In this document: in pieces, positions 44,808 through 63,820 of the stretch
How the letters are laid out: each line of letters opens with the position of its first letter
Numbering within the stretch: position 1 is the first letter of the stretch
Source of the DNA: a bacterium
GTDB lineage: Bacteria > JADJOY01
Direction of reading: 5' to 3'
DNA: 64,000 nucleotides
Assembly: GCA_046331705.1 (NCBI GenBank)
Contig: JAXLQJ010000039.1
Location: 1 to 64,000, forward strand
Program-made: the position numbers and the translations under genes
Notes under the pieces: generated by a model
The model's database searches: none
Told to the model about the DNA's origin: nothing
What the model saw: the letters and a program-made list of their open reading frames with translations, nothing else

Positions 44808-44823
44808 TTCGCGGAGCGAGGCC

Positions 44824-45499: not shown

Positions 45500-45534
45500 G
45501 GGTGTCGTCCTCCTCGTCGTTCGCGACTCGAAGC

Positions 45535-45921: not shown

Positions 45922-45933
45922 GGCGATCCTCGA

Positions 45934-46764: not shown

Positions 46765-46863
46765 CGGTGTGGCTTCCTCACGCCGAGCCCCTCCTGCCCG
46801 GCCAGCGAAAGCGCGCGAACATGGCCCGCCGTGCCGCGATCGGGCAAGGCGCTCGCGGCCCCA

Positions 46864-48480
46864 TCACGCCGAGCTGGGCGTGGTGAGAAGGCGCGGGAAG
46901 AGCAAGCGATCCATGAGCGTCGCGCGCAGGCTCGCGAGAGGTCTGAGCGGCGAGCGCCACCAGCGCTCCAGGAAATAGCGCGCGGTGCCGAGCGCCAGGA
47001 GCGGGCGCGTGGCGAGCAGGCGGGCCGCGTTCCGGCCCAGCACGCCGAGCGCCTCGCTCATGAAGCGGTCGCGCAGGTCGAGCAGCTCGTCGGCGCGGAA
47101 CTCCGCGGTGGTGATGTGCGCGAACGGGTGGGTGTGCGCGGCGATGCTCTTCCTGCTGGCGGCGCTGGCGAGCGGCTCGGTGAGGTAGCCGGCGGCGGTC
47201 GCGAGCTCGTGGACGCGGGTGCCGACGTGCGGCTCCACCACGTTCACGTGCGGCACCACGCCGAAGTCGGCGAGCAAGAAGCGCGCGAAGTCGAGGGTGC
47301 GCTGCAGGGTGGCGCGGGTCTCGCCGGGCATGCCGAGCAAGTAGAAGGCGTGGACGTCGAGGCCGACCTTGCGGCACGCGCGCGCCGCGGCCACCACGGC
47401 CTCGAGGTCGAGGCGCTTGTCGACGATTCGCTCGAGCACCTCCGGATCGCCCGACTCGACGCCCAGGATCATGTAGGTGCAGCCCGCTTCCTTCGCGAGC
47501 GCCACCAGGTCCTCGTCCAGATCGTCGGCTCGCACTCCGTTGGGCGTGTCCCAGGTGAGGCCGGGAAGCTCGCGACGGAAACCTTCCAGGATCGCGCGGA
47601 AGCGAGCGCGGTTGACCGTCACGTTGTCGTCGTTGATGTGCAGATGGCGAACGTCGTAGCGCGAGCGCAGGAAGCGCACGTGCTCGATGACGTAGTCGGG
47701 GCTGTGGGCGCGAAACGCGTGGCCCGCGAGCCGTGGTGCGTCGCAGAACGTACAGCGATACGGGCACCCGCGACTCGTGATGAGCGAGACGCGACGGTTC
47801 GAGCCGGGCCTTCCGAACGCGAACTTGCTCGCGAATCCCCGCGCGAAGAGCTCGAAATAGCGCTCCAGGTCGAGCTGGTGATAGGCGGGGAAGGGCAGCG
47901 AGTCGACGTCGGCGACGCGCGCGGCCGGCGCCCCGTGGACGATCGCGCCGTCGCGCCAGAAGACCGCGCCGGCGATCGAGTCGAGCGCGTCGCCACGGGT
48001 GAGCGCGCCCACCAGCTCGGCGAAGCTGGTCTCGCCCTCGCCGCGGAACGCGACCTCCACGGCGGGCTCGGCGGCGAGGATCGACTCGGGATCGTTGGTG
48101 GCGTGGGGCCCTCCCACCACCACCCGCGCCGTGGGCGCCGCCTCCCGCGCCAGCCGCGCGGCGTCCAGCGCGAACGGCAGATGGTCGGTGAACGGGTTGT
48201 TGATGCCGATCACGTCGGGCCGTGCCGCGGCGATCCGCGCGCGCATCCGCTCGGAGGATGCGCCGAAGTGGATCGTGGCGCCGGGTCGCGCAGTCGCGGC
48301 GAGGTCGGGTTCGGCGAGCGCGTCGAAGACCTCGACGTCGATGTCGTGCCGCTCGAGGACGGCGGCGAGGTAGAGCGGCCCGAGCGGCAGCTCGAGGCGC
48401 GGCCCGTCGGGGAACGGGCGATTGCGGAAGACCGCGGGCGGCCGCAGCAGCAGGACGCGGGGTCGGCGGCGACGCGACAT
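46864..48480 (-). CDS. B12-binding radical SAM protein (class B-like)
   Basis: PLGPLYLAAVL, VVVGGPHAT, GEGE, TSRGCPYRCTFC, DDN, GVESG, GMPGET. Confidence 0.93.
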   Translation of the reverse strand: MSRRRRPRVLLLRPPAVFRNRPFPDGPRLELPLGPLYLAAVLERHDIDVEVFDALAEPDLAATARPGATIHFGASSERMRARIAAARPDVIGINNPFTDHLPFALDAARLAREAAPTARVVVGGPHATNDPESILAAEPAVEVAFRGEGETSFAELVGALTRGDALDSIAGAVFWRDGAIVHGAPAARVADVDSLPFPAYHQLDLERYFELFARGFASKFAFGRPGSNRRVSLITSRGCPYRCTFCDAPRLAGHAFRAHSPDYVIEHVRFLRSRYDVRHLHINDDNVTVNRARFRAILEGFRRELPGLTWDTPNGVRADDLDEDLVALAKEAGCTYMILGVESGDPEVLERIVDKRLDLEAVVAAARACRKVGLDVHAFYLLGMPGETRATLQRTLDFARFLLADFGVVPHVNVVEPHVGTRVHELATAAGYLTEPLASAASRKSIAAHTHPFAHITTAEFRADELLDLRDRFMSEALGVLGRNAARLLATRPLLALGTARYFLERWWRSPLRPLASLRATLMDRLLFPRLLTTPSSA

Positions 48481-48736
48481 CGGGGTGCGGCGGGATCGCT
48501 GCGATTGGGGCGCCCGCAGGCTAGCACGCGAGCCGCACCCTCCGTTCGCGCGCTCGCCCGGGAATTGCGGGCGAAAGACGCGCTTCGCGGCAGCGATCGC
48601 GGGCGTGGGAGAGCGCGCCGCGCCCCTCCGACGCAGTCGTGCGATTGCAGATCGCTTCGCCTTTGGTAGGATTCCACGTCCTGGCCGTCGTTCGGGCCAT
48701 CGCCTCGCCGCACCCGATCTCCACGCCGACGCGCAC

Positions 48737-49573
48737 GTGACCTTTCGAGTCCGCTTCTGGGGCGTGCGCGGCTCCGTCCCGACGCCCGGCACGGGGACCG
48801 TGCGCTTCGGCGGCAACACGTCGTGCGTCGAGGTGCGCGCCGGCGAGCGCGTGCTGATCCTCGACTCCGGTACCGGCGTGGTCGGGCTGGGCCGCACCCT
48901 CGACCCGCGCCGCGCGCTGGAGGTGGACTTCCTGATGAGCCACCTCCACTGGGACCACATCCAGGGATTTCCGTTCTTCGATCCGGCGTTTCGCTCGGAC
49001 GCGCTGTTGCGCATCCACGGCAACACCAAGTTCGCGGAGAGCTTCGAGGAAGCGTTCGCCGCGCAGATGGGCGGCGTCTATCACCCCGTCCCGTTCCGCT
49101 CGCTGCCCGCGAAGATCGAGTTCGTGGACGTGAGCCACGGTCAGAAGCTCGATCTCGACGCGCACGTCGCCGTCACGATGGCGGACCTGGATCATCCCGG
49201 CGGCTCCATCGGCTACCGGATCGACTACCGCGGCCGCTCGATCGTCTACGCCACCGACCACGAGCACTTCACGTTCGTGGACCCGCGGCTGATCGCGCTG
49301 GCGCGCGGCGCCGACATCCTCATCTACGACGCCATGTACACCGAGGACGAATACCTCGGGAACGTGGGCTTTCACCGGGTGGGATGGGGCCATTCCACCT
49401 GGCAATACGGCGTGCGGACGGCGCTGGAGGCGGGCGCCAAGCAGCTGGTGCTCTTCCATCACGATCCCGGCCACGACGACCCGTGCCTGGAGGCGATCGA
49501 GCGCGAGGCGCGGTTGCGCTTCCCCAACACCACCGTGGCGTGGGAAGGGCTCGAGATCGACCTGAGCGTGTGA
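48737..49573 (+). CDS. MBL-fold metallo-hydrolase (phosphodiesterase-like)
   Basis: FWGVRGSVP..FGGNTSCVE, DSGTG, SHLHWDHIQG, HPG, TDHE, DAMY, WGHS, FHHDP. Confidence 0.93.
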   Translation: MTFRVRFWGVRGSVPTPGTGTVRFGGNTSCVEVRAGERVLILDSGTGVVGLGRTLDPRRALEVDFLMSHLHWDHIQGFPFFDPAFRSDALLRIHGNTKFAESFEEAFAAQMGGVYHPVPFRSLPAKIEFVDVSHGQKLDLDAHVAVTMADLDHPGGSIGYRIDYRGRSIVYATDHEHFTFVDPRLIALARGADILIYDAMYTEDEYLGNVGFHRVGWGHSTWQYGVRTALEAGAKQLVLFHHDPGHDDPCLEAIEREARLRFPNTTVAWEGLEIDLSV

Positions 49574-50829
49574 GCCCGTCCCCGTCGCCCGCCAAAGCGC
49601 TGTTCTTGCCGTACGACGTGCTGTCGTCGGTGACGCGTCAGCTCGAGCTCGCTCAGGAGTTGCGCAGCCGCCGCTACGAGGTGCTCTTCGCCGGCGAGGG
49701 GCCGTTCCTCGATCTCGTCGTCGAGGCCGGCTTTCCCGTCGAGCCGCTGCCGAACCTGCGCGCCGAGCGTTTGCTCAAGCACCTGCGCCTCTTGCGCGAG
49801 AGCTTGAGCGGATTCGGCCGCGTGGCGGCGGGCATCTGGCGCGAGCTCGACCTGGCGCAATACCTCGATCGCGAGCTCGAGCTCGTGCGTCGGTTTCGCC
49901 CGCACGTGGTGCTCAGCGAGGAGCGCCCCACCGCGCAGCTCTCGGCCCACATCGAGGGGATCGCGCACGTCTCGCTCCGCAACGCGTACCGCACGGCCTA
50001 CTCGTCGCTGCCGATGCTGGATCTCTCGGGAAGCTTCCTGCGGCGGCTCCACCCCGATCCCGTGGTGGTGCAGAACGAGATCATCCGCTGGCTGGGAGCG
50101 CCGTTCTTCTGGCGACTGCGCTCGATCGCGCGCAGCCGTGGGCTCCCCCAACCGCTGCGTTACGCCGATTACGTCGAGGGGGACGATCTCTCGTTGCTGT
50201 GCGACGTGCCCGAGTTCTCGCCCACGCGGGTGCTGCCGGAGCGGTACGCGGTGATCGGCCCGCTCTTCTGGGACCCGCTCTGGCCCGACCCGCCGTGGCT
50301 CGACGACCTCCCGCCCGATCGCTCCACGGTCTACGTGTCGCTGGGATCCAGCGGCACACCCGCGCTCTTTCGAGCGCTCGCCGACGCATTGCGCGCCGAG
50401 GGCGCGACGCTGGCGATCGCCACCGGCCGGCAGATCGCATCCGACGAGCTTCCCCGCGGCGCGGGGGTGTGGACGGCGGAGCTGGTGCGCGCCACGCGGG
50501 TGCTCGAGCGCGTGGGCTTGTGTGTGTGTCACGGCGGCAATGGCACGGTCTATCAAGCGCTCTCGCGCGGCGTGCCGTTGATCTGTGTGCCGACCCACCT
50601 CGAGCAGCGCTTCAACGCGCGGCGCGTCACCGAGCTGGGGCTCGGGCTGGACTTGGGACTCGATCAGCTCCTCGCCGATCCGACCGTGCTGGCGGCGGCG
50701 GTGTGCACGATCCGCGGTGATGCCGGGTTTCGCGAGCGCGCGGCGGCGTGGCAGCGGCGGATCGCCGAGCTCGACGCGCCGGCGGCGGCCGCCGACGCGA
50801 TCGGCGCCTTACTCGCCGCCCGACGCTGA
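49570..50829 (+). CDS. GT1-family glycosyltransferase (phenolic-glycolipid rhamnosyltransferase-like)
   Basis: LLCDVPEFSP...IGPLFW.P..P.WL..L..DR..VYVSLGSSG, CHGGNGTVYQALSRGVP, EQRFNA; GTGA overlap with the MBL gene. Confidence 0.85.
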   Translation: MSPSPSPAKALFLPYDVLSSVTRQLELAQELRSRRYEVLFAGEGPFLDLVVEAGFPVEPLPNLRAERLLKHLRLLRESLSGFGRVAAGIWRELDLAQYLDRELELVRRFRPHVVLSEERPTAQLSAHIEGIAHVSLRNAYRTAYSSLPMLDLSGSFLRRLHPDPVVVQNEIIRWLGAPFFWRLRSIARSRGLPQPLRYADYVEGDDLSLLCDVPEFSPTRVLPERYAVIGPLFWDPLWPDPPWLDDLPPDRSTVYVSLGSSGTPALFRALADALRAEGATLAIATGRQIASDELPRGAGVWTAELVRATRVLERVGLCVCHGGNGTVYQALSRGVPLICVPTHLEQRFNARRVTELGLGLDLGLDQLLADPTVLAAAVCTIRGDAGFRERAAAWQRRIAELDAPAAAADAIGALLAARR

Positions 50830-51918
50830 CGCGGCGACCGTGCGGCCGGTGGCGCGGTAGAGCTTGCAGCAGCGCGCGCAGCCGGGGTACGAGCCGCCGG
50901 CGCGATCGAGCGCCGTGCGCAGCTTGCGCATGTCCGGCGCGTTCCAGAGCGCCGCGAGCGAGGCGGTGCGCACGTTGCCGACGCGGCGCTGGATGAACTG
51001 ACAGAACACCACGTCGCCGTTCGCCAGCACGCGCACGTCCGTCCACGGGTAATGGCAGCGGGCACGGATGGTGGTGCTGCCGTCGCCGTACCAGCTCGCC
51101 AGCTCGGCGCGCGAGAGGTCCGGTTTCACCCAGACCGGGATGCCGTTCGCCGCCGGAAGCACCGCCGGCTCGGTGAAGCCGCGGGGCGGTGCGTCGGGCG
51201 CGGCGAGGCCGGGGTCGGGCTCGCCGGTATGGCGCGTCCATGCGGCGGCGTGACGCGCGCGCAGCGCCGGCGTGAAGAGGGTGGGGTGCTGAAAGGTGAC
51301 GCCGTCGAGGGCCAGACGGCGGGCCAGCGCCAGCGCGCCCTCGCCGTCGGCGTGCGGCAGCACGCAGTTGAGGAGCATGCGGGTGCCGTTGCGGTGGCGT
51401 GCCGCGTATTCGAGACCGGCGCGCTCGGCTTCGCCCGTGTCGGTGCCCGCGTCGAGCGAATGCGGCGAGATCAGCAGGAAGCTCGGCTTCGCCTCCAGCA
51501 AGCGGCGGCCACGCTCTCCGGCGAGTAGCAGCCCGTTGGTGTTGAGGCCGACGCGCACGCCGCGCGCCCGTGCGTGGGCGACGAGCTCCGGCAGGTCGGC
51601 GCGAATCAGCGGCTCGCCGCCGGTGAGGTAGAGTCCTGCGCCGAGCCGCGCCGCTTCCTCGACGATCGCGAGGGCCTCGCCGGTGGCGAGCTCGTCGCCG
51701 CCGCCGTTGAGCGCGTCGGGCTGCAGGAAGCAGAACGCACAGTCGAGGTTGCAGCGATTGGTGATCTCCCACGTGATGGCGAGCGGCCGCGCCGCGAGGC
51801 CGCGACCGAAGCGATGCTCGAACGGCAACGTGAGCGCGCGCGCCACGGCGCGCGGCAGCGGAACGCTGCCCACGGTGGCGAGATGCGCGAGCTTCGAGAC
51901 GAGCGTGCTCACGAGCAT
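50809..51918 (-). CDS. radical SAM / SPASM-Twitch domain protein
   Basis: EITNRCNLDCAFC, TGGEPL, NTNG, CHYPW....NGDVVFC, GNV...W, CARCC. Confidence 0.9.
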   Translation of the reverse strand: MLVSTLVSKLAHLATVGSVPLPRAVARALTLPFEHRFGRGLAARPLAITWEITNRCNLDCAFCFLQPDALNGGGDELATGEALAIVEEAARLGAGLYLTGGEPLIRADLPELVAHARARGVRVGLNTNGLLLAGERGRRLLEAKPSFLLISPHSLDAGTDTGEAERAGLEYAARHRNGTRMLLNCVLPHADGEGALALARRLALDGVTFQHPTLFTPALRARHAAAWTRHTGEPDPGLAAPDAPPRGFTEPAVLPAANGIPVWVKPDLSRAELASWYGDGSTTIRARCHYPWTDVRVLANGDVVFCQFIQRRVGNVRTASLAALWNAPDMRKLRTALDRAGGSYPGCARCCKLYRATGRTVAASASGGE

Positions 51919-51960
51919 CGAGAGGCGGCCACCCGCGCGATCGGGGCGGCCCGGCACCAC

Positions 51961-54102
51961 ATGGACGTGACGCGCGTGACGCGAGGGGGAAAGGTCGCGC
52001 GAGTCTACCACGCTGCCCTCGCGTGCCTGCTCGCGCTGGCGGCGATCGCGGGTTGCCTCGCGGGTGGGCGGCGGGGCGCGCCGCCGCTTCGGATCGCGTC
52101 GTGGCGGCTCGGCGCGGACGCGGCGAGCGAGGCGCAGGCCGAGCGGGTGGCGGCGGTCGACCCCGCGCGCGGCGTGATTCGCGATCCCGATGCGATCCTC
52201 GCGCGCGACGATCGGTGGGCGGTGCTCGAGGCTCCCGCGCGCTCCGAAGGCCCGGATCCGTGGGCGTCGGCGCCGCAGCTGGTGGTCGACTTCGGTCGCG
52301 AGGTGGTGCGCCAGGCGGCGCTTCGCATTCGGCCCGGCTCGGTGGGGCGCATCGAGGTCGCGCTCGGCGAGTCGCGTGGTGAGCTGGACTCGACTCGCGA
52401 CGGCGAGGAGTTCCCGCGCCGATTCGAGCTGGATGCGGCGGACGGCGAGTGGTGGTCCGCGCCGGTGACGGGCTTTCGCTTCGCGCGGGTGCGGGTGCGG
52501 CGCAGCGACGAACGGCCCGCGCGGGTCGAGATCGACGTGCTGCGCGGCACGGGCGGTGGTCAGGCGGCGCTCGCGGCGCCGCCGGCGGGCGAGTTCACGT
52601 GCTCCGACTCGGGCCTCGACCGTTCCTGGCAGGCGGGCGCCGAGACGGCGCGGCTCTGCCTCTCGGCGGACGCCGAGCCGCTGCTCCTGGACGGCGCCAA
52701 GCGCGACCGCGCGGTGTGGTCGGCCGACGTGGCGATCGCCGCGCGCGCTCTCTATGCCTCGAGCGACGACGTGACGCCGGTGGCGCGCTCGCTCGAGCGG
52801 CTCGCCGAGCTGCGCGGCGACGAGCCGTCGAGCGCGCAGCCGGTGGCCGCCACCGACCACCGCGGCGGGCGATTGGAGCTGGTCGAGTACGGCGGCTGGT
52901 GGCTGATCGCGGTGCGCGATTACTGGCGCGAGACCGGCGACGACGACTTCGTGCGGCGGCTCTTCGCCAAGATCGCCGCTCAGGCCGCGTGGACGCTGGG
53001 GCGCGTGGAGGCCGACGGCTTCGTCCACAAGCGCGCCGACGAGCTCGAGTGGTGCTACTCGTTGCACCGCGTCGGGGCGCTGGCGTACGTGAACGCGGTG
53101 CTGAGCGACGGGCTCGCCGCCGCCGCCGAGCTCGGACGCGCGGTGGGCGAGAGGGAGTGCGCGGCGGAGTGGGAGCTTGCCGCGATCCGGATGCGCGGCG
53201 CGGTGCTGGCGCGGCTGTGGGATCCGGTGGGTGGCCGCTTCGCCACCTCGACCGACGACGACGGACGATTCTCCCTGGACGCCAACGTGCTGCCGCTCTG
53301 GCTCGATTGGCTGCCCGAGGACGATGGCGACCGTGTGCTCGCCGCGATCGAGCGCAGGCTCTGGCTCCCGTGGGGGCCGGTCAACGTCGATCGCCCGCAT
53401 GCGCGCGCCGACGGCCCCGAGCACGACGGCCGGGTATGGCCGTTTCTCGCGTATTTCGAGGCGGACGCGCGGCTTCGCCCCGGCCGCGACTCCGCCGCCG
53501 GCTTCGAGCTGCTGCGCCGCACCTGGGGCCACATGCTCGCTCACGAGCCGGGCAACACGTTCTGGGAGTGGATCGGGCCGGACGGCAATCCCGAGATCGC
53601 GCGCGCCAGCCTGGCGCACGCGTGGTCCGCGGGCGTGACCACGGTGCTCAGCGAGCGGGTCCTCGGCATCCGCGCGGTGGCGCCGCGCACGTTCGAGGTG
53701 GCGCCGGTGGTCGGTTCGCTCACCCAAGGCGCGGGCGTGCGGCCAACGACGTGGGGACCGATTCGCGCGAGCTTCCGCCACGAGCCGCGGACCGGTCGTC
53801 TGGATCTGGTCGTCGAGATGCCCGCCGCGACGAGCGTCTCGCGGTTCCTCTTGCCGGCCCGGGAAGGATCGCGGGTGCGCCTCGGTGGACGCGAGCTGGG
53901 CGTGGCCACGGAAACCAGCCGGGCCGTCGAGTTGCCCGTGGTCGTCGAGCGCAAGCGCGGCTACGTCGTGGTCGAAGCCCCGCCGTCGCTCGAGTACCGC
54001 TTCGAGGTGCGCGCGGCGGCGGGCGCCCCGCCGGCCAGGCCCGATCCCGCATCCGCGCCCGAGCTCGAGGCGCGACGAAACGCGCGACGACAACTAGGTT
54101 GA
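51961..54102 (+). CDS. alpha-L-rhamnosidase-like (GH78, six-hairpin) lipoprotein
   Basis: Lipobox-like LAAIAG-C; VVDFGRE, GFRF, GEFTCSD..L...W, DGAKRDR.VW..D, TFWE, SLAHAWSAG, PT.WGPI. Confidence 0.87.
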   Translation: MDVTRVTRGGKVARVYHAALACLLALAAIAGCLAGGRRGAPPLRIASWRLGADAASEAQAERVAAVDPARGVIRDPDAILARDDRWAVLEAPARSEGPDPWASAPQLVVDFGREVVRQAALRIRPGSVGRIEVALGESRGELDSTRDGEEFPRRFELDAADGEWWSAPVTGFRFARVRVRRSDERPARVEIDVLRGTGGGQAALAAPPAGEFTCSDSGLDRSWQAGAETARLCLSADAEPLLLDGAKRDRAVWSADVAIAARALYASSDDVTPVARSLERLAELRGDEPSSAQPVAATDHRGGRLELVEYGGWWLIAVRDYWRETGDDDFVRRLFAKIAAQAAWTLGRVEADGFVHKRADELEWCYSLHRVGALAYVNAVLSDGLAAAAELGRAVGERECAAEWELAAIRMRGAVLARLWDPVGGRFATSTDDDGRFSLDANVLPLWLDWLPEDDGDRVLAAIERRLWLPWGPVNVDRPHARADGPEHDGRVWPFLAYFEADARLRPGRDSAAGFELLRRTWGHMLAHEPGNTFWEWIGPDGNPEIARASLAHAWSAGVTTVLSERVLGIRAVAPRTFEVAPVVGSLTQGAGVRPTTWGPIRASFRHEPRTGRLDLVVEMPAATSVSRFLLPAREGSRVRLGGRELGVATETSRAVELPVVVERKRGYVVVEAPPSLEYRFEVRAAAGAPPARPDPASAPELEARRNARRQLG

Positions 54103-54137
54103 GCGTCTCCCCGTCGCACGCCGCGAACGATTGGCCG

Positions 54138-55517
54138 ATGCCGAAGCCGAAGATCCGCCGGGTGTTGCTGCTCAACCCGCCCGGTGCGCGGCGTTATCTG
54201 CGCGACGTCTACTGCAGTCACAGCTCGAAGGGGACGTACCTCTATCACCCGCTCGATCTCGTGGCGCAGGCGGCGATGCTGGGGCCGCGCTTCGAGCTCT
54301 TCTTCCTGGACGCGATCGCCGAGCGCCTCGGCGTCGAGGAAGCGCGCGATCGAATCCTGGCCGTGGCGCCGGATGCGATCGTGTTCCTGTCGGGCGCGGT
54401 GTCGTACGCCGAGGACGTGGCGTTCCTTGCCGACCTCAAGCGCCGCGATCCGGCGCTCACGCTGGTGGGCATGGGCGACGTGTTCCTGTGGGAGGCCGAG
54501 CGCTTCCTGGCCACCCATCCGTGGATCGATGCCGCGCTGCCGGATTTCGTGAGCGCCGCGCTGGCGCCGGCGCTCCTCGAGGGCACGGCGCGTGGCGTGA
54601 TCGGCACGGATCCTTTCGCCCGCGGCGCCGGCAAGTCGTTCGCGTACGGGGCTCCGCCGTACGATCTCTTGCCGATGGACGCCTACCGATTGCCGTTCGG
54701 CAAGCCCGAGCGATTCGGTTCGTTGCTCACGAGCTTCGGGTGCCCGTTTCACTGCACGTACTGCAACACGGCGGAGATGCCGTACCGTCTCCGCGACCTC
54801 GACGGCGTCTTCGAGGAGCTCGCGTATCTGCGTGCGCGCGGGGTGCGGAAGATCTACGTCCGCGATCCCACGTTCGCGCTCAACCCCCGCTACACGAAGG
54901 CCTTGCTCGATCGCTTGATCGACGAGCGCTGGGACATCGCGTGGAATTGCTTCCTGCGCGCCGACCGCGTCGATGCGCCGCTGCTGGCGCGAATGAAGCA
55001 GGCGGGCTGCTACCTGGTGATGTTCGGCATCGAGACCGCGAGCGACGAGCTCAACGCACGCTCGCGCAAGGACATCACGGTGGCGGAGATTCGCGCCGGC
55101 GTCGCGGCGGCCAAGGCCGCTGGCCTCGAGGTGCTCGGGACGTTCGTCCTCGGCATGCCGGGCGAGACGCGGCGCACCGCCGAGGAGACCATCGATCTCG
55201 CCACCGAGCTCGACCTCGACTACGCGTCGTTCAACGTCGCCACGCCGCGCATCGGCTCCCAGCTGCGCGATCAGCTGGCCCTCGGCAGCGTGCTGGACTC
55301 CGGCGCCGAGGGAATGGACGGGTCGAACCAGATCCCGCGGCTGGGCGACGAGGTGCTCACGCCCGAGCAGGTGTGGCGTCTTCGCAATCGCGCGGTGTGG
55401 AGCTTCTACGGCCGGCCGAGCTACCTCGCCCGGCGTGCCCGCGAGGCGCTGCGCGACGGCGGCCTCGTGATCGGCGCCCGCAACGCCTTGAGCCTGTTCG
55501 GCTCGGCGTTGCGCTGA
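54138..55517 (+). CDS. B12-binding radical SAM protein
   Basis: VLLLNPP, RDVYCSHSSKG.Y..PLDL, TSFGCPFHCTYC, DPTF, FGIET, GMPGET, FY.RPSY. Confidence 0.9.
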   Translation: MPKPKIRRVLLLNPPGARRYLRDVYCSHSSKGTYLYHPLDLVAQAAMLGPRFELFFLDAIAERLGVEEARDRILAVAPDAIVFLSGAVSYAEDVAFLADLKRRDPALTLVGMGDVFLWEAERFLATHPWIDAALPDFVSAALAPALLEGTARGVIGTDPFARGAGKSFAYGAPPYDLLPMDAYRLPFGKPERFGSLLTSFGCPFHCTYCNTAEMPYRLRDLDGVFEELAYLRARGVRKIYVRDPTFALNPRYTKALLDRLIDERWDIAWNCFLRADRVDAPLLARMKQAGCYLVMFGIETASDELNARSRKDITVAEIRAGVAAAKAAGLEVLGTFVLGMPGETRRTAEETIDLATELDLDYASFNVATPRIGSQLRDQLALGSVLDSGAEGMDGSNQIPRLGDEVLTPEQVWRLRNRAVWSFYGRPSYLARRAREALRDGGLVIGARNALSLFGSALR

Positions 55518-55549
55518 CGCGCGTGCGACCGGCACCGCGCCGGGCGGCA

Positions 55550-56047
55550 TCAGCCGAGAATGGCGAGCGCCGCGTCGATCGCGAGCTCGATGATCACCCA
55601 GCCGAGGTCGCCGGCGTCGACGGTGGGACGGGCGGACGCGATTCGCGCCACGCGCCTCGTGGTCGGGTGCAGTCGTCGCGTCGAGGGCGCGTCCGCTGCG
55701 TCGACGTTCGGCGCCGCGCCCGGCCGTAGCGGCAGCCGCGCGAGCTCGTCGCGATCGAACCACACGAGCTGACACCGCTTGCAGAGGTCGAGCTCGAGCG
55801 GACCCTCGCCGGCGATCGGCACGTCGGCGACGCGCATCTGGGCGCGGCAGGCGGGACATCCCCGAGCGTTCGTCGGCAGCGACGCCCGCCGCCAGATCTC
55901 GACGAGTGCCGCGCCTTCGTGCCTCGAGCGCAGACCCGCGAGGGTGACGGCGACGCCCTCGCAGCGTTCGCAGCGAAACGCGAGCACCCGCCCGGCGCGT
56001 CGCTCCGCCAGCGCGATGGCGCAGGCGGGGCAGTCGAGGGGCTTCAA
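55550..56047 (-). CDS. tandem zf-TFIIB-like zinc-ribbon protein
   Basis: CPAC..CERC..CPAC..LDLCKRCQLVWFDRDEL; TTG start. Confidence 0.8.
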   Translation of the reverse strand: MKPLDCPACAIALAERRAGRVLAFRCERCEGVAVTLAGLRSRHEGAALVEIWRRASLPTNARGCPACRAQMRVADVPIAGEGPLELDLCKRCQLVWFDRDELARLPLRPGAAPNVDAADAPSTRRLHPTTRRVARIASARPTVDAGDLGWVIIELAIDAALAILG

Positions 56048-56079
56048 GGGCGGCCTCCGCGGCTCGCGATCCGCGCTGC

Positions 56080-56595
56080 TCAGCCGACGAAGAAGTCCGC
56101 CAGCTTGCCGAGGAGCGCGGCCGTCTTCTCCATGCCTTCGGCGGTGGCCGCGCGCTGATTCTCGTCACGGATCCGGTCGGCCCACATCGACGCCAGCGCC
56201 TGCGCGTAGGCGGCCTTGGCCTCGGGAGGAAGCTGAGCGGGCGTCGCGCTCTCGGTCCGCGGGCGCGCCGGAATGCGGTCGAGATCCCCGGGGTCGAGCC
56301 AGGCGAGCTGACAGCGCGTGCAGACGTCGACGCTCAGCTCGCCGTCGGCGAGCTCGGCGCTCGCACGGGCGGCCGTCTGGTTGCACATCGCGCACGATCG
56401 ACCCGCAGCTGCTTGGGCGGCGCGCGCCGCTCCCCACAGATGGGAGACGATCACCGTGTCGCGCTCGCGGCGCAGCAGCGAGATCGGCACGGCCGAGCCG
56501 CCGCAACCCTCGCACCGCCAGACTCGACTCTCGTGTCGCCGCTCGACGCGAAGCGAAGTGCGGCAGCACGGGCAGCGCGCGGCGGTGGACTCCAT
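56080..56595 (-). CDS. tandem zf-TFIIB-like zinc-ribbon protein (paralog)
   Basis: CPCC..CEGC..CAMC..VDVCTRCQLAWLDPGDL; TGATG overlap with the upstream radical SAM gene. Confidence 0.82.
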   Translation of the reverse strand: MESTAARCPCCRTSLRVERRHESRVWRCEGCGGSAVPISLLRRERDTVIVSHLWGAARAAQAAAGRSCAMCNQTAARASAELADGELSVDVCTRCQLAWLDPGDLDRIPARPRTESATPAQLPPEAKAAYAQALASMWADRIRDENQRAATAEGMEKTAALLGKLADFFVG

Positions 56596-58436: not shown

Positions 58437-58458
58437 GACGGAACGCTCTCCTGAGGGG

Positions 58459-58489
58459 GCTGACGCGACGCAAGCTCGTCGCGTTCAGC
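58459..58489 (-). promoter_or_regulatory. strong hairpin just upstream of the RBS of the 56595-58436 gene
   Basis: GCTGA-CGCGACG-caagct-CGTCGCG-T-TCAGC; no U-tract. Confidence 0.55.
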
Positions 58490-58729
58490 GCTCCGCGCCG
58501 CGCGAAGGATCCGAGCGGGAGGCGCGGCTGCGCCGAGCCCGATCGCTCGCGGGAATGACCACGTGGACAGGCGACCGTTCGAGCGGGGTGATGGAAGCGA
58601 TCCGACCGCGAGGTGGACGTCCCACCGGGGTGTGTCGGGGCTGCCTATCGGGTTCCTGAATCACTCGACCGTCGCGCTGGGTTTCGCACGCTCGAGGTCC
58701 GCGCGGGGGACGTGCGCGCACCCGAGCGC

Positions 58730-58759
58730 ACGGTACCACGCGATTTTCGAGAGGGTCAA
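58730..58759 (-). promoter_or_regulatory. putative sigma70 promoter (TTGACC-18 nt-TACCGT, extended TG)
   Basis: Reverse complement of GGTCAA (58754-58759) and ACGGTA (58730-58735). Confidence 0.55.
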
Positions 58760-58783
58760 ACCAACGAAGACACCAACGAAGAC
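58760..58783. repeat. perfect 12-bp tandem direct repeat ACCAACGAAGAC x2 abutting the -35 element
   Basis: Read directly from the sequence. Confidence 0.9.
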
Positions 58784-58927
58784 ATCGGACCGTCGCCCTG
58801 TCGCGCGTGCCGCCGACATGCCGGAACGACCACGTTGCGCGTGCTCCGCGTCCTTCCGTCGCCGCGCGGCTGGGCTCGCGAGCGAGGCTCGCACCCGCGG
58901 CGCGCCAGCGCGCGGGGGCCGAATTCC

Positions 58928-58957
58928 TTGACGGCGCGAGAGGTGGGTTCGTACGTT
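58928..58957 (+). promoter_or_regulatory. putative sigma70 promoter for the rSAM-rSAM-GT4-GT4 operon
   Basis: TTGACG-18 nt-TACGTT. Confidence 0.5.
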
Positions 58958-59004
58958 AGCCGGCGTTCTCACCCCCCACGAGAACCCGTCAGCCCATCGC
59001 CACG

Positions 59005-60075
59005 ATGATCGACTTCGCGGGCCTCCGCGAGAACCTGAAGCTGAGAGCACGAGCCGAGGCCGCGTGGCGGAAGGTCGTGCCGCGCCCGCAGCAGGTGCAC
59101 ATCAGCATCACCGATCGCTGCAATCTGAGCTGCGAGCATTGCGACATCTGGATGAAGCCGGTGCCCGGCGAGGTGCCGGTCGAGCGCTGGCGCGAGGTCG
59201 TCGACGAATGCCTGGAGTGGCTCGGCCCCTTCACGCTGAAGATCGTGGGCGGAGAGCCGCTCCTGAAGGAGGGCGTGGTCGAGCTGATCGGCCACGCGAA
59301 ATCGCGCGGTTGTCGCGTCGGGCTCTCGACCAACGCGATCCCGCTGTCGAGCCCCGAGCGCGCTCAGCAGATGATCGACACCGGGCTCGACGAGATCCAC
59401 ATCTCGCTCGAGAGCTACACGCCCGACCATCACGACCAGATCCGCAAGCGCGTCGGCGCGCACGCGCGCACGGTCAAGGCCATCGGCGAGCTCTCCCGTC
59501 GCCGCACCCATCTGCAGATCAGCCTCGCCACGGTGGTGTGTCAGCAGAACCTGGACGAGCTCACCAAGATGGTGGACTTCGTCCGCGACAACGGCCTCTA
59601 CACCGTGAACTTCCAGCCGCTCTACGCCAACTTCGGACGGCCGTTCGACCCGCGCTGGTACGAGACCAGCCCCTATTTCCCGCAAGACATCGACAAGCTC
59701 GACGCCATCCTGGATCGCCTCTCCGAGATCCGCACCACCGAGTGGCTGGTGGGCAACACCGTCAACCAGCTGCGCATGATGAAGGTCTATTTCCGCAACC
59801 CCAACGCCGACGACCAGGTGGTGTGCAAGGCGGGCGACGACGACATCGCGTTCGACCCGTACGGCAATCTCAAGATGTGCTTCTGGCTCGACCCGGTCGG
59901 GAACATCCGCGAGGAAGGGCCGAAGAGCGCGTACTGGTCGCAAGAGGGGCGCGAGCGCCGTCAGCAGGTTCGGACCTGCACGCGGAACTGCAATCTGCTC
60001 AACTGCAACTTCGACCGCGAACGCTTCGGCGAGGCGTTCTGGACGCGCTTGGGCATCGGCGGCGCGCGCAGCTGA
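59005..60075 (+). CDS. radical SAM / SPASM-Twitch domain protein
   Basis: ITDRCNLSCEHC, GGEPL, STN, HDQIR, CKAG....DPYGNLKMC, GNI, CTRNCNLLNC. Confidence 0.92.
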   Translation: MIDFAGLRENLKLRARAEAAWRKVVPRPQQVHISITDRCNLSCEHCDIWMKPVPGEVPVERWREVVDECLEWLGPFTLKIVGGEPLLKEGVVELIGHAKSRGCRVGLSTNAIPLSSPERAQQMIDTGLDEIHISLESYTPDHHDQIRKRVGAHARTVKAIGELSRRRTHLQISLATVVCQQNLDELTKMVDFVRDNGLYTVNFQPLYANFGRPFDPRWYETSPYFPQDIDKLDAILDRLSEIRTTEWLVGNTVNQLRMMKVYFRNPNADDQVVCKAGDDDIAFDPYGNLKMCFWLDPVGNIREEGPKSAYWSQEGRERRQQVRTCTRNCNLLNCNFDRERFGEAFWTRLGIGGARS

Positions 60076-60094
60076 GTCCGCGGAGCCCTCATCC

Positions 60095-61096
60095 GTGCAG
60101 CAAGCGTTGGCGCGTCGCGTCTCCTACTGGCTCAACTGGCCCCTCGTTCCGCCCTCCAAGCTGATCCTGTTGCTCACCCACCGCTGTCCGGTGGCGTGCG
60201 AGTTCTGTTCCACGCATCGTTGGGCCGCGGCACGACCGCGCGAGCTCACGCTGGTCGAGCTCGAGGCGCGGCTCGCCGAAGCCGCGAGCTGGGGCATCCG
60301 CGAGGTGCTCTTCTCGGGCGGCGAGCCGCTGCTGCGGCGGACGGACGTGCTGGCGCTGACGCGCGCGGCGCGCGCGCTGGGGATGATCCCCACGCTCATC
60401 ACCAGCGGAGCGGTGGGCGGAACGGCGACCCTGGAAGCGCTCGTCGAGGCGGGAATGGCGAGCTTCATGGTGTCGCTGGACGGCAACTGCGCCGAGACCC
60501 ACGATCGTCTGCGCGGCCGGGTCGGCTCGTTCGACGAGGCGATCGCGTGGCTGGCGGGAGCGGTCGAGCTTCGCGAACGCCTCGGCGCGCCGGCGTTGCC
60601 GTACACCGTCTACGTCCAGACGGTGGTCACGCGGGAGAACGTGGCCGAGATCGTGGCGCTGGCCGAGCGGGTTCGGGAGCTCGGCGTGGATGCGATCCTC
60701 TTCCAGGGCCTGGCGCCCGACGCCTATCTCGCCGCGCATCCCTTCGACGCGCGCGCCCTCGCCGCGCTCGCCGAGGCGATCGAGCGGCTGGCGCGCATCG
60801 AGCCGCGCTCGCTGGTGATGAACCCCGACGGCTACTTGCGCGAGCTGCTCGGCTTCTACGGCGAGCGCGATCGGATCCAGCCCAAGCGCTGCCCCGCGGG
60901 ATTCGACACGTTGGTGCTCGCTCCCGACGGATCGGTGAGCACCTGCCGCGAGTCGTTCACGCGCGAGATCCTGGGCGAGGGTGGCGAGCCGCTCACCCTT
61001 CGCGAGGCGTGGACCCATCGACGCTTCCAGGCCGCGCGCCGTACGATGCGCGTCTGCAAGGAGCCGTGCACGATCAACTGCTGGTACTCGTCGTGA
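60095..61096 (+). CDS. radical SAM / SPASM-Twitch domain protein
   Basis: THRCPVACEFC, SGGEPL, SLDG...THDRLRG, CPAG....PDGSVSTC, CKEPCTINC. Confidence 0.92.
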   Translation: MQQALARRVSYWLNWPLVPPSKLILLLTHRCPVACEFCSTHRWAAARPRELTLVELEARLAEAASWGIREVLFSGGEPLLRRTDVLALTRAARALGMIPTLITSGAVGGTATLEALVEAGMASFMVSLDGNCAETHDRLRGRVGSFDEAIAWLAGAVELRERLGAPALPYTVYVQTVVTRENVAEIVALAERVRELGVDAILFQGLAPDAYLAAHPFDARALAALAEAIERLARIEPRSLVMNPDGYLRELLGFYGERDRIQPKRCPAGFDTLVLAPDGSVSTCRESFTREILGEGGEPLTLREAWTHRRFQAARRTMRVCKEPCTINCWYSS

Positions 61097-61146
61097 GTCG
61101 CGCGGCGGGTCCGCAGCACCGACGAACGTAGCCCTCGACCACCGGC

Positions 61147-62292
61147 ATGCGCATCGCGCTCGTCCACGACGCGGGGAGCGAGCGAGGCGGAATCGAGACC
61201 TATCTCGACCTCGTCGCGGCCGGGCTCGGCCAGCGGGGGCACACCGTGTGGCGCGCCGACCCGCGGACCGCGTTGGCGGCGCGCGGGGGAATCGCCGCGG
61301 ACGCGGCATCCGCGCCTGGCGAGATCGACGTCGTGCACGTCCATCGGCTCGAGGATCCCGAGGCGATCACCGAGATCGCGCGCCGCGTCCCCGCCGTGTG
61401 GTCGATTCACGATCACCGCCCGTTCTGCCCGGGGGCGAACCGCCTGCGGAGCGACGGGAGCGCGTGCGTCCGTGCTGCCGGCGCTCCGTGCGCGCTCGAG
61501 GGCATCCTCGGGCGCTGCTCGGGGCTCGCGCGCTGGCCGCGCGCCACGGTGCGGCGCGTGTCGGACTGGTCGCGCTACCGGGCGGCGCTGGCGAGTCGCG
61601 CTCCGTGCGTGGTCGCCTCGGCGTTCATGCGCGACGTCGCCGCGAGTCAGGGGCACGCCGCGCGCGATCTCGTCGTGCTGCCGTATCCGGTGGTGCCGCC
61701 GGCGGAGATCGGGCGGACGGCGGCGGACGCGCGGGGAGTGCTCTTCGCGGGGCGGCTCGTCGAGCCCGACAAAGGCCTCGCGCTCCTGGTCGACGTGCTC
61801 GCGCGCTTGCCGCCCACGATCCGCGCCGTGGTCGCCGGCGGAGGTTCGGCGCGGCGCTGGCTAGAGGCGCGTCTCGCCGAAGCCGCGCTCGGCGCGCGAG
61901 TCGAGCTCGTGGGCTGGCTCGATCGCGACGCCTTGGCGCATCGACTGAGCGATGCCGCGGTGGTGGTCATGACGTCGGCGTGGCCCGAGCCTTCGGGGTT
62001 GGTGGGCCTCGAGGCGCTGGCGCACGGGCGCCCGGTGGTGGCGACCGACGTCGGTGGGATCGGAGAGTGGCTCGCGGAAGGTGTGGTCGGGCACCGGGTA
62101 CCGCCCGGCGATCCTGTTGCGATGGCGGATCGAATCCGGGTGCTGCTCGGGGATCCGGCGCGTCGTGAGGCCATGGGCCGCGCGGGGCGTGCGTGGATGC
62201 TCGCGCATCGCTCGCTCGCGGGCCACGTGAGGGCGCTCGAAGGGCTCTACGCTCGCGTGGCTCACCGGACCCGGGAGGCGAGGAGCGCATGA
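61147..62292 (+). CDS. glycosyltransferase family 4 with Cys-rich insertion
   Basis: GGIETY, HDHRPFCP...C..C..C, FAGRL...KG, WPEPSGLVGLEALAHGRPVV. Confidence 0.92.
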   Translation: MRIALVHDAGSERGGIETYLDLVAAGLGQRGHTVWRADPRTALAARGGIAADAASAPGEIDVVHVHRLEDPEAITEIARRVPAVWSIHDHRPFCPGANRLRSDGSACVRAAGAPCALEGILGRCSGLARWPRATVRRVSDWSRYRAALASRAPCVVASAFMRDVAASQGHAARDLVVLPYPVVPPAEIGRTAADARGVLFAGRLVEPDKGLALLVDVLARLPPTIRAVVAGGGSARRWLEARLAEAALGARVELVGWLDRDALAHRLSDAAVVVMTSAWPEPSGLVGLEALAHGRPVVATDVGGIGEWLAEGVVGHRVPPGDPVAMADRIRVLLGDPARREAMGRAGRAWMLAHRSLAGHVRALEGLYARVAHRTREARSA

Positions 62293-63560
62293 GGATCGCG
62301 CTCGTCGGCGTGCTGCCGCCGCTGCGCTCGGGGATCGCCGATCACACCGTGGAGCTCGCCCGCGCGCTCGGCACGCGCAACGAGGTCCAGCTCTACGTCG
62401 AGGATGCCGGCGGCGTCGCCACGCCGGCCGGGCTTCGCGAAGCGCGCGCGGCGAGCGATCTTCCGCGCCGGCGGCACGAGCACGACGTCGTGCTCTACCA
62501 GGTGGGCAATCACGCAGCGCACGGGTTCGTCTACGAGCTGGCGCGCGAAGTCCGCGGTGTCCTCGACCTGCACGATGCCACGCTCCACGACTTGGTCGCG
62601 TCGCGCTACCTGGGGCGCCCGCTCGCGTTCGCGCGCGAGCTGGCGCGGAACGAGGGGTTGGTGCGGATGCTGCCGCGGCTGTTGGCGTTCGATCCCGAGA
62701 CCCGGATCGGCGCGGCGCGCTGGCTCGACCGCGCGCGCTTCCGGGTGAGCGCGCATTCGGATCGGCGCGCGCTCTTCCCCCTGCGCTACGCGCTCATCCG
62801 AGCGGCGCGAGCAGTCGTGGTCCACAGCGTTCACCTCGAGCAGAGCCTCAGGCTCGAGTGCCCGAGGACCCCGGTCGTCCACGTCCCGCACGGAGTCCGC
62901 GACGACCTGCCGCCGCAGGATCGGCGCGCCGCGCGCGCGGAGCTCGGTCTCGCCCGCCTCGGCGTGGGCGACGAGACCACGGTCGTTCTCAGCTTCGGGC
63001 TGATCCAGGCGCACAAGCGCATCACCGTCGCGCTCGACGCCGTGCGGCGCGCGCGTGCCGGTGGCCTCGACCTGCACTACGTGCTGGTCGGCCCGCGCTC
63101 GCCGGATCTCGATCTCGACGCCGCCATCGCCGCGCGCGACCTCGCCGCCGCGGTGCACGTCGTCGACGATTTCCCGCCCATCGAGCGGGTGGCGCTCTGG
63201 ATCTGCGCCGCCGACCTCGGCCTCAACCTGCGCGGCCCCTCGAGCGGCGGCACCTCGGGTGCGCTGCTCAAGATGATGGCGCTCGGTCTGCCGACCATCG
63301 TCACCGCGGTCCCGGAGCTCACGCACCTGCCGCCCGACTCGGTGCACTTCGTGGCGACCGGCGCGCGCGAAGCTCACGACGTGGCGCTGGCGATCGAGCG
63401 ATGGGCCCGCTCGCCCGAGCAACGGGATCGGGTGGCCGCGCGTGCCCGAGCAGCCATTCGAGACGGCGGATTCGGCTGGCCGGTCTGCGCGGAACGCTAC
63501 CAGCGCGCGCTCGCCGCGGTGGTCGAGGGCGAACGCGTTTCCAGCTTCCATGGCTCGTGA
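62289..63560 (+). CDS. glycosyltransferase family 4
   Basis: PPLRSGIADH, YQVGNH..H, LHD..LH, SFGLI..HKR, NLR.P..GGTSGALL; ATGA overlap. Confidence 0.9.
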   Translation: MRIALVGVLPPLRSGIADHTVELARALGTRNEVQLYVEDAGGVATPAGLREARAASDLPRRRHEHDVVLYQVGNHAAHGFVYELAREVRGVLDLHDATLHDLVASRYLGRPLAFARELARNEGLVRMLPRLLAFDPETRIGAARWLDRARFRVSAHSDRRALFPLRYALIRAARAVVVHSVHLEQSLRLECPRTPVVHVPHGVRDDLPPQDRRAARAELGLARLGVGDETTVVLSFGLIQAHKRITVALDAVRRARAGGLDLHYVLVGPRSPDLDLDAAIAARDLAAAVHVVDDFPPIERVALWICAADLGLNLRGPSSGGTSGALLKMMALGLPTIVTAVPELTHLPPDSVHFVATGAREAHDVALAIERWARSPEQRDRVAARARAAIRDGGFGWPVCAERYQRALAAVVEGERVSSFHGS

Positions 63561-63631
63561 GCCCTCTGCTAGAATCGGCCGGCCCGTCAGGGATTCGAGG
63601 ATCGTGTCGGCGACGGAAGAGGCGTAGCGAG

Positions 63632-63820
63632 ATGCCCGATCGAGTGGCTGAGCAAGCCCCCCTCAAGAAGCCCTCGCTGTTCGAGGAGTTCGTCTGGTTC
63701 CTCAAGCACGAGAAGAAGTGGTGGCTGAGCTTCATCGTCGCGATCTTGGTGGTGCTCGCGGCGTTCATCTTCTTGACCGAGAACAACGCCGTGATGCCGT
63801 TCATCTACACGATCTTCTGA
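63632..63820 (+). CDS. DUF5989-family small membrane protein
   Basis: EF..FLK..KKWWL..I...L.......PFIYTIF; TGC-TAGAAT extended -10 at 63567-63575. Confidence 0.88.
   Translation: MPDRVAEQAPLKKPSLFEEFVWFLKHEKKWWLSFIVAILVVLAAFIFLTENNAVMPFIYTIF

Follow-up and report, generated by a model that had tools for sequence, protein, structure and literature searches.

What do six radical S-adenosylmethionine (SAM) enzymes do among glycosyltransferases? The question is raised by a locus in the right part of the window, by which we mean the whole 64,000-base stretch of DNA that was analysed, bases 1 to 64,000 of the 71,264-base contig JAXLQJ010000039.1. The source genome is metagenome-assembled, with a size of 8.17 Mb, a GC content of 70% and a completeness of 95.67%. 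A first-pass annotation of the window had read the genes from 46864 to 63820 as the best candidate for an undescribed system, with radical C-methylation and oxidation of the sugars of a surface glycan or glycolipid. Read on along the same contig beyond the window, the cluster is about 19.5 kb long, from 46864 to contig base 66321, so that its last 2.5 kb or so lies outside the stretch noted earlier; with uppP on its left flank, its 17 genes bring the locus to 18. We see about an even chance that the genes from 46864 to 66321 form a single biosynthetic cluster, whose product would be a lipid-anchored glycoconjugate of the envelope, polyprenyl-linked or else a glycolipid. A connection with sugars is supported because the closest relatives of one of the six, rSAM4, lie in archaeal glycan loci together with Wzm/Wzt, glycosyltransferases of family GT4 and a fusion of GT4 and radical SAM domains.

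Order and grouping of the genes

Because high GC yields many false open reading frames (ORFs), genes were called from third-position GC, candidate starts and Pfam and NCBIfam scans. Family membership was judged from whole-protein bit scores against the curated NCBIfam cut-offs. As shown in Table 1, the 15 genes named by the first-pass annotation were all present and intact in Pfam scans and translations, and inspection of the translations bore out its claim of an intact CxxxCxxC motif, one in each of the six radical SAM proteins. The genes are tightly packed, and start and stop codons overlap at four junctions (MBL/GT1, GH/B12rSAM2, Zn2/B12rSAM3 and GT4a/GT4b).

The phylum is represented in the genome collection by six species of two genera, with G005 from the other genus. 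Of the 18 query genes (uppP and the 17 cluster genes), G003 has 17 in the same order, Zn1 being missing, and G002, G004 and G005 have the same order as far as their shorter contigs reach. GT4c, GT2 and DUF2304 were syntenic in G002, G003 and G004. The adjacency of uppP, already claimed in the first pass, was confirmed; this gene is the sole copy in the source genome (a single tblastn match) and adjoins the cluster also in G003 and G005.

The genes are conserved to different degrees. Compared with G005, B12rSAM3 and rSAM4 were 88-89% identical, the other radical SAM proteins 72-79%, GT4a and GT4b 53-58%, and the glycoside hydrolase (GH) 42%. Across the phylum, identity was 88-95% for B12rSAM3, 89-92% for rSAM4 and 90-95% for DUF5989; relatives of GT4a and GT4b had 53-67% and 58-71%, respectively, and GT4c, DUF5989 and DUF2304 together spanned 86-95%. 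Glycosyltransferases and the GH thus evolve fastest (42-71%, the GH fastest of all) and radical SAM genes slowest (72-95%), with rSAM4, a single-copy gene, the best conserved in the cluster. Fast glycosyltransferase and GH genes with slower tailoring genes are the pattern of surface-glycan loci.

The first-pass annotation had allowed for a chance aggregation, with the genes scattered in related genomes. They are not scattered, since the order is the same in G002 to G005, and chance grouping was rare. The source genome had 142 Radical_SAM and 85 B12-binding domain matches; 78 of the 142 radical SAM genes lie within 5 kb of another, forming ten groups of at least three, among which this locus ties for the largest with six. 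When 142 points were scattered at random over the contigs, 3 of 2000 placements gave a chain of at least six with spacings of 5 kb or less, and the 50 neighbour pairs observed compare with a random mean of 11.3 and a maximum of 23. On these counts of chains and pairs, the grouping of radical SAM genes is real, though this group is one of many in this genome. Other groups are found at C7:97835-106772 (six genes), C28:86448-95046 (five) and C46:16701-21736 (five). Five glycosyltransferases fall within the 19.5 kb, against 87 glycosyltransferase-like loci across the 8.17-Mb genome, and glycosyltransferases are also interleaved in its other radical SAM clusters on contigs C13, C79, C47 and C7. At C13:74160-77610, radical SAM, GT4 and radical SAM genes are ordered as in the archaeal GT4-radical SAM fusion.

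Table 1. Genes and other features of the locus, in contig coordinates (the window ends at 64000).
Feature	Position	Strand	Support
uppP/BacA, undecaprenyl-diphosphate phosphatase, left flank	45934..46764	-	Pfam BacA E 3.1e-73
B12rSAM1, B12-binding domain + radical SAM, 538 aa	46864..48480	-	PF02310 1.4e-21, PF04055 6.7e-24
MBL-fold metallo-hydrolase, RNase Z-like, ~278 aa, start uncertain	48737..49573	+	PF12706 3.9e-19; PDB RNase Z 2.5e-11
GT1 glycosyltransferase, macrolide/natural-product type, 419 aa	49570..50829	+	PF06722, PF04101, PF00201
SPASM1, radical SAM + SPASM-type C-terminus, ~354 aa	50809..51873	-	PF04055 1.3e-16, PF13186 3.3e-11
GH, GH78-like six-hairpin (alpha-L-rhamnosidase-type) predicted lipoprotein; alternative start 51961	51883..54102	+	PF17389 7.1e-13
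B12rSAM2, class-B-like radical SAM, 472 aa	54099..55517	+	PF04055 4.6e-20; N-terminal domain without Pfam match
Zn1, double zinc-ribbon protein, hydrophobic tail	55550..56047	-	PF13453 2.9e-12
Zn2, double zinc-ribbon protein	56080..56595	-	PF13453 3e-08
B12rSAM3, B12-binding domain + radical SAM, 613 aa	56595..58436	-	PF02310 1.2e-12, PF04055 8.1e-19
Conserved non-coding block in 568-bp divergent intergenic region	58650..58770	.	near-invariant in 5 genomes
rSAM4, radical SAM, twitch/SPASM-like Cys-rich C-terminus, 356 aa	59005..60075	+	PF04055 2.3e-22
SPASM5, radical SAM + SPASM-like C-terminus, 333 aa	60095..61096	+	PF04055 1.7e-21
GT4a glycosyltransferase, 381 aa	61147..62292	+	PF00534 1.5e-28
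GT4b glycosyltransferase, divergent, 423 aa	62289..63560	+	PF13692 6.3e-09
DUF5989 small membrane protein, 62 aa	63632..63820	+	PF19451 9.8e-15
GT4c glycosyltransferase, 5' end in window from 63948	63948..65171	+	PF00534 2.7e-37
GT2 glycosyltransferase, PpgS-like, beyond window	65168..65986	+	PF00535 2e-19
DUF2304 small membrane protein, beyond window	65983..66321	+	PF10066 2.2e-21

Families of the radical SAM enzymes

The first-pass annotation had named membership in characterised families (HpnJ/HpnP, BchE, Ahb/NirJ) as a finding that would speak against a new system; no such cut-off was reached. Against HpnJ (TIGR03471, cut-off 577.6), B12rSAM1, B12rSAM2 and B12rSAM3 scored 162.4, 115.2 and 99.3 bits, and against BchE (TIGR02026, cut-off 481.35) 132.7, 59.7 and 62.2 bits. 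The best score among NirJ, AhbC and AhbD (TIGR04051, TIGR04055, TIGR04545, TIGR04546; cut-offs 500-650) was 89.4 bits for rSAM4 against AhbD; SPASM1 had 79.5 bits against NirJ2. SPASM5 had 97 bits against PqqE (TIGR02109, cut-off 381.35), and no PqqD or RiPP recognition element (RRE) domain was found in the cluster, RiPP standing for ribosomally synthesised and post-translationally modified peptide. The best NCBIfam match of B12rSAM1 was the Sden_1168 P-methyltransferase (201.9 bits, cut-off 575), that of SPASM1 reached 81.7 bits (cut-off 525) and that of rSAM4 94.8 bits (cut-off 395). B12rSAM2 scored 106.8 bits against PhpK, and against the AprD4 family (cut-off 500) B12rSAM1 and B12rSAM3 scored 100.8 and 110.8 bits. 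Because no NCBIfam match reaches its cut-off, none of the six is, as judged by sequence, HpnJ, BchE, NirJ/Ahb or PqqE.

The claim of three B12-binding radical SAM enzymes stood for B12rSAM1 and B12rSAM3, which have the predicted class B architecture of PF02310 followed by a CxxxCxxC core. In B12rSAM2 the core is present and PF02310 was undetected, even in a genome-wide scan for B12-binding domains; its N-terminus is homologous to that of B12rSAM1, which aligns over residues 1-492 with the G005 orthologue of B12rSAM2. Cobalamin supply is plausible, since CobQ was above its cut-off in the source genome; cobalamin binding by the B12-type enzymes is a prediction only. B12rSAM3 also has a C-terminal extension of about 140 aa that is confined to near relatives. 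Its relatives outside the near kin have 66%, 46% and then at most 39% identity and are mostly 460-490 aa long; its family is very large, numbering 32106 representatives when E <= 0.001 is allowed and 1067 when E <= 1e-30 is required. A protein atlas search with B12rSAM3 gave generic B12-radical SAM clusters only, and the 12-kb contig of its relative in genome G018 (36% identity) holds no other cluster gene.

The three SPASM/twitch enzymes claimed alongside them also stood unevenly. Pfam SPASM (PF13186) was above its cut-off only in SPASM1, whose CxxxCxxC begins at residue 40. SPASM5 fell short (20.3 bits, cut-off 21.5), and for rSAM4 the domain was seen only on homologues, with five C-terminal Cys residues invariant in 26 family members. 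All three have a Cys-rich auxiliary-cluster domain after the core. Among the longer SPASM5 homologues, 13 of 52 are fused to GT4-type domains.

Of the solved structures, AprD4 (PDB 6FD2) was nearest in sequence, with E values of 1.9e-25 for B12rSAM1 and 1.5e-29 for B12rSAM3; SPASM5 matched PqqE (1.1e-18) and BlsE (2.3e-14). An AlphaFold2 model of rSAM4 (mean confidence, pLDDT, 84.8) had BlsE (7VOB) as its predicted best fold match, with an E value of 2.7e-16 and TM 0.68/0.73; further matches, after SkfB, were MoaA, SuiB, anSME and DesII. The nearest solved relatives are thus a sugar diol-dehydratase, AprD4, and a sugar decarboxylase, BlsE, and the specific C-methylation and oxidation chemistry proposed in the first pass was not supported. 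C-methylation by the B12-type enzymes is one of several possible options, favoured by no result here; besides a P-methyltransferase family, these enzymes score best against HpnJ, which carries out a ring contraction, and the AprD4 family, in every case far below cut-off.

Could the substrate be a peptide instead of a sugar? The radical SAM enzymes would then mature either a RiPP of proteusin or sactipeptide kind or some Cys-rich protein, for instance one of the zinc-ribbon proteins, and the glycosyltransferases would glycosylate the product. Sub-threshold matches to ApyD (148.7 bits), a RiPP C-methyltransferase (105.6 bits), StsB, PqqE and mycofactocin maturases point this way, as do SkfB and SuiB among the best fold matches of rSAM4 and Myxococcota relatives that have ABC-2 exporters and few glycosyltransferases. 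All RiPP-family scores are, however, far below cut-off. The largest intergenic region has no small ORF that is conserved, and no PqqD/RRE domain (PF05402) was found; with their cores starting as early as residues 31-40, the radical SAM proteins leave no room for a fused N-terminal RRE. The combination of precursor and RRE/PqqD that makes a RiPP cluster was not found in these searches, and the zinc-ribbon genes vary from none to two copies among relatives. We consider this explanation improbable. Pfam scans of the cluster genes also agreed with the first-pass annotation that polyketide synthase, non-ribosomal peptide synthetase, terpene cyclase and RRE/PqqD genes are absent.

The lipid part of the product is another candidate substrate, to which we give little credence. 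The radical SAM enzymes would act on acyl or isoprenoid chains by methylation, cyclisation or C-C coupling, and the glycosyltransferases would only add the head group of a specialised membrane glycolipid. Tes, GrsA/B and HpnP/R are radical SAM enzymes acting on lipid chains. There are weak matches to Tes, a tetraether synthase (58 bits), a ladderane-type B12 lipid radical SAM family (96.5 bits) and HpnR (88 bits), the PDB matches include GDGT-MAS, and GT1 and GT4 enzymes often make glycolipids. Yet every score is far below cut-off, the cluster has no lipid-synthesis gene, searches of the 95.7%-complete genome gave no squalene-hopene cyclase and no HpnJ above cut-off, and the best solved relatives are sugar enzymes. 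A hopanoid reading in particular was rejected: squalene-hopene cyclase (TIGR01507) was unmatched in the source genome at E <= 1e-10, and the genome's best HpnJ match, on contig C79, had 262.3 bits, below the cut-off.

Relatives outside the phylum

rSAM4 had 91 homologues at E <= 1e-10; three have 73-77% identity, and the next below them 44% or less. Its family is small and distinct, with 36-44% identity in other phyla. A scan of 185,579 species' genomes gave 132 relatives, of which 80 were kept, and a metagenome scan added 80. Beyond the phylum, the two nearest relatives of rSAM4 are archaeal, at 43-49% identity, and both lie in sugar loci. The first, in L101 (labelled Woesearchaeota), is accompanied by two GT4 genes, Wzm, Wzt with Wzt_C, a 937-aa GT4-radical SAM/SPASM fusion, a further GT4 that brings the stand-alone GT4s to three, a B12-radical SAM gene and a GT2. 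The second, in L102 (Methanobacteriota), is found with a GT4, a radical SAM/SPASM gene, a B12-radical SAM gene, further radical SAM/SPASM genes and a carbamoyltransferase. Each radical SAM gene of L102 has a relative of 34-49% identity in the source genome; these relatives are distributed over three clusters, at C7:104073-107818, at C7:115828, at C13:74160 or in this cluster. The first of these segments, with a radical SAM/SPASM gene, a B12-radical SAM gene and a split radical SAM plus SPASM piece, is syntenic with L102 at 34-44% identity.

Together with the GT4-radical SAM fusions and the sugar-acting nearest solved relatives, these archaeal loci bear out the link to sugars drawn in the first pass. 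Because of the archaeal loci, the SPASM5-GT4 fusions and the glycosyltransferases interleaved in other clusters of the source genome, the sequences suggest that radical SAM families are combined in varying ways, often with glycosyltransferases.

The metagenome scan with the rSAM4 alignment returned almost only Myxococcota-type loci and L130, and no member of the phylum with long flanks. On metagenome contig L130, six radical SAM genes in a row and a GT4 occupy 6807-14309. The large majority of rSAM4 relatives are labelled Myxococcota, Deltaproteobacteria or proteobacteria, some of these labels being unreliable. L110:4140-8407 and many Myxococcota-labelled metagenome-assembled genomes have a cassette of 3-4 radical SAM/SPASM genes, one split into radical SAM and SPASM parts; it also holds unknown proteins of 430 and 243 aa, an ABC-2 exporter, DegT and a prepilin peptidase, and no description of it was found in the literature searched.

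Several observations weigh against a single glycoconjugate pathway. In the Myxococcota-type setting, a radical SAM/SPASM gene lies directly upstream of the rSAM4 relative and the opposite strand carries one or two others, with almost no glycosyltransferases. With the glycosyltransferase queries used, a glycosyltransferase near an rSAM4 relative was seen in only 1 of 74 genome loci (L101), a count from which divergent glycosyltransferases may be missing, and, among the metagenome loci of at least 6 kb that were listed (39), only in L130. By tblastn, in which radical SAM paralogues cross-match, the ATPase of an ABC ATPase/ABC-2 permease pair was found in 28 and DegT, a sugar aminotransferase type, in 19 of 71 loci of at least 12 kb. 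In two Myxococcota genomes, the MBL homologues (35-39% identity) have neither GT1 nor radical SAM neighbours, and four other genomes that were tried gave no close GT1 relative. As a predicted fold match for rSAM4, the peptide maturase SkfB comes close to BlsE. Pfam scans found no priming phosphoglycosyltransferase, Wzx/Wzm-Wzt, Wzy or nucleotide-sugar gene among the 18 genes, and no flippase, exporter, polymerase or chain terminator in the cluster. The locus thus lacks the priming enzyme and the exporter or flippase of an ABC-transporter or Wzx-Wzy surface glycan locus. Synteny of the whole cluster is seen only among six closely related genomes; because these are close kin, it shows that the genes were kept, not that they must be together. 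There are, finally, at least six transcription units of alternating direction.

Some of these points suit a composite locus, in which at least two independent modules adjoin one another in this small phylum alone. For example, GT1, MBL and radical SAM enzymes would glycosylate and tailor a small lipophilic molecule, rSAM4, SPASM5 and the GT4s would be a separate module for a glycan, and GT4c, GT2 and DUF2304 would be a housekeeping unit for polyprenyl-phosphate sugar. Besides the alternating units, it would fit the uneven conservation, with GT4c, DUF5989 and DUF2304 at 86-95% against 53-71% for GT4a and GT4b. The relatives of GT1 are natural-product glycosyltransferases acting on small aglycones: GT1 had 84.2 bits against MGT (TIGR01426, cut-off 260) and matched CalG4 (8.2e-18) and OleD (5.9e-17) in the PDB. 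Outside the phylum, only the radical SAM cassettes were found together, and in a genome with 142 radical SAM genes neighbouring modules could each bring some. A composite is nevertheless hard to square with the scarcity of six-gene chains in random placements, with the lack of any unrelated gene within the 19.5 kb, with an order that is kept across two genera, uppP included, and with the translational coupling of GH to B12rSAM2, MBL to GT1 and B12rSAM3 to Zn2. We judge a composite origin unlikely, though by no means negligible.

Proposed pathway, known systems and implications

The genes beyond the radical SAM enzymes bear on how a lipid-anchored glycoconjugate might be built. The GH has a predicted GH78 six-hairpin domain (PF17389, 49 bits, cut-off 24.5) and matched solved alpha-L-rhamnosidases at 6e-26 (8IWD) to 3.6e-17. 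Because a signal-like hydrophobic stretch ending in Cys was present in all four orthologues inspected, it is a probable exported lipoprotein; the GH78-like lipoprotein of the first pass was thus upheld. Zn1 and Zn2 are paralogous (34% identity). G002 has no zinc-ribbon copy and G003, G004 and G005 have one each, with Zn2 orthologues at 46-52% identity in these three.

The best NCBIfam match of GT2 was PpgS (NF058614, 116.2 bits, below the cut-off of 370), then AglJ, dolichyl-phosphate hexose transferase and ArnC-type enzymes. We propose that GT2 works like a polyprenyl-phosphate sugar synthase, although its sequence does not make it a member of PpgS. The partner of mycobacterial PpgS belongs, we assume, to DUF2304. 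A fusion of PAP2 phosphatase and PMT_2 (GT-C, ArnT-like) lies at 31828-33954 on the minus strand, 13 kb from the cluster; it could use the polyprenyl-phosphate sugar of GT2 and DUF2304, 30 kb away.

In the pathway that we infer, as to substrate class, topology, order of steps and every individual reaction, the GT4s and GT1 would first extend a short sugar chain on a lipid acceptor at the cytoplasmic face. The six radical SAM enzymes would then abstract hydrogen from C-H bonds of the growing or nucleotide-activated sugar, and the outcome, not redox-neutral, might be deoxygenation or dehydration, decarboxylation or oxidation, epimerisation, C-methylation or ring rearrangement. The PpgS-like GT2 and DUF2304 would make a polyprenyl-phosphate sugar for decoration outside the membrane, and the GH78-like lipoprotein would trim or remodel the exported product.

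A region of 568 bp separates the divergent B12rSAM3 and rSAM4 genes. Within it, a block of about 110 nt is near-invariant in five genomes while its flanks vary, and it is unique in the source genome. No conserved reading frame was found in this region across the five genomes, the other short intergenic regions not having been searched for tiny ORFs; the first-pass claim that no obvious precursor is present agrees with this for the largest intergenic region. An Rfam scan of 44000-64000 (E <= 1) gave only a chance snoRNA match and no cobalamin or SAM riboswitch. The block gave no stable consensus fold (-3.3 kcal/mol, no covariation), which is a weak result, the relatives' coordinates being partly off. 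A sigma-70 promoter scan found no site, and terminator-like sites were no commoner than in shuffled sequences. The block is probably a promoter/operator or a leader.

Metagenomes of activated sludge, wastewater and digesters from at least nine studies contain near-identical DNA. In three RNA libraries (two studies), short contigs fall on MBL, GH, B12rSAM2, Zn2, B12rSAM3, the intergenic block, rSAM4 and SPASM5, and one of them covers 58592-58726, the left part of the block. These contigs give neither strand nor level, and the parts that they leave uncovered carry no meaning; since DNA carry-over is possible, they are only a hint that the locus is expressed.

To the right of DUF2304 lie housekeeping genes (xerC/D-like, CCA-adding, trpS and scpA), and to the left of uppP lie crcB, DUF190, a toxin-antitoxin pair and housekeeping genes. 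Just left of uppP, the GC content of 40000-46000 is 0.65-0.68 against 0.70-0.75. The genes of this segment include HNH/DUF222 (40688-41938), a BrnT-type toxin paired with an antitoxin of MqsA/HTH type (44105-44718), a member of the glyoxalase family and crcB/DUF190, and the segment may be an inserted stretch. The nearest exporter, a pair of ABC-2 permease and ABC ATPase genes at 24719-26490 on the minus strand, is about 20 kb off, with no established link to the cluster.

Several known systems share parts of this design. Like HpnI/HpnK/HpnJ and the calditol synthase Cds, the cluster would join glycosyltransferase and radical SAM enzymes on a lipid sugar, and HpnJ is among the best NCBIfam matches of all three B12-type genes. 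In contrast to the hopanoid pathway, it has no HpnH, HpnG or HpnK, and has six radical SAM enzymes and five glycosyltransferases. A review (PMC13459092) describes HpnJ, acting after HpnI/HpnK, and calditol synthase as radical SAM enzymes that rework a lipid-borne hexose placed by a glycosyltransferase. AprD4, which acts on the sugar of an aminoglycoside, has the same B12-like N-terminal domain and radical SAM core; the cluster differs in having neither an AprD3-like reductase partner nor aminoglycoside genes. The twitch-type cytosylglucuronate decarboxylase BlsE, whose substrate is a sugar acid, is a full-length fold match of rSAM4 and a sequence match of rSAM4, SPASM5 and SPASM1, but its identity to rSAM4 is 21%, and SPASM5 had 66 bits against TIGR04466 (cut-off 400).

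With the ABC-transporter-dependent glycan loci of the L101 type, the cluster shares GT4s, a GT2 and the adjacency of uppP, although it is without Wzm/Wzt, priming enzyme, polymerase and chain terminator. The GT2 followed by a DUF2304 membrane protein resembles PpgS with its small membrane partner and the GT2s of GtrB/ArnC/AglJ type, yet GT2 falls well short of the PpgS cut-off. Proteusin-type RiPP clusters likewise have several B12-type and other radical SAM enzymes, and there are weak RiPP C-methyltransferase matches here; unlike them, this cluster has no precursor, RRE or leader peptidase. In the full-text literature searched, which covers few subscription journals, we found no description of radical-SAM-rich envelope glycan clusters or of DUF5989. 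A plasmid block of Brachyspira with a radical SAM gene and a glycosyltransferase gene is mentioned in another article (PMC4267127).

The locus is a well-conserved form of a kind of locus that recurs and has apparently not been characterised. It is possible, and we suggest it tentatively, that the six enzymes are a mix-and-match toolkit common to Archaea, Myxococcota and this phylum that edits lipid-linked envelope sugars by C-H chemistry. The same tentative suggestion covers the chemistry itself, which may include deoxygenation, C-methylation, epimerisation, decarboxylation and ring contraction. How radical SAM enzymes tailor sugars is understood for a handful of antibiotics and for two lipid head groups, and we know of no such C-H chemistry on sugars outside antibiotics, hopanoids and calditol. 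The locus offers a compact, intact and conserved test set, with rSAM4, SPASM5, GT4a and GT4b in a single adjacent run. If the toolkit exists, its product would contain sugars not known from the glycans of cell surfaces, and the 142 radical SAM and 85 B12-domain genes of this genome would then reflect radical cell-surface diversification in low-oxygen sludge. The editing of lipid-linked sugars would mean new monosaccharide chemistry, antigen diversity and biocatalysts for carbohydrate C-H functionalisation, and it would also explain why some uncultured lineages have dozens to more than 100 radical SAM genes.

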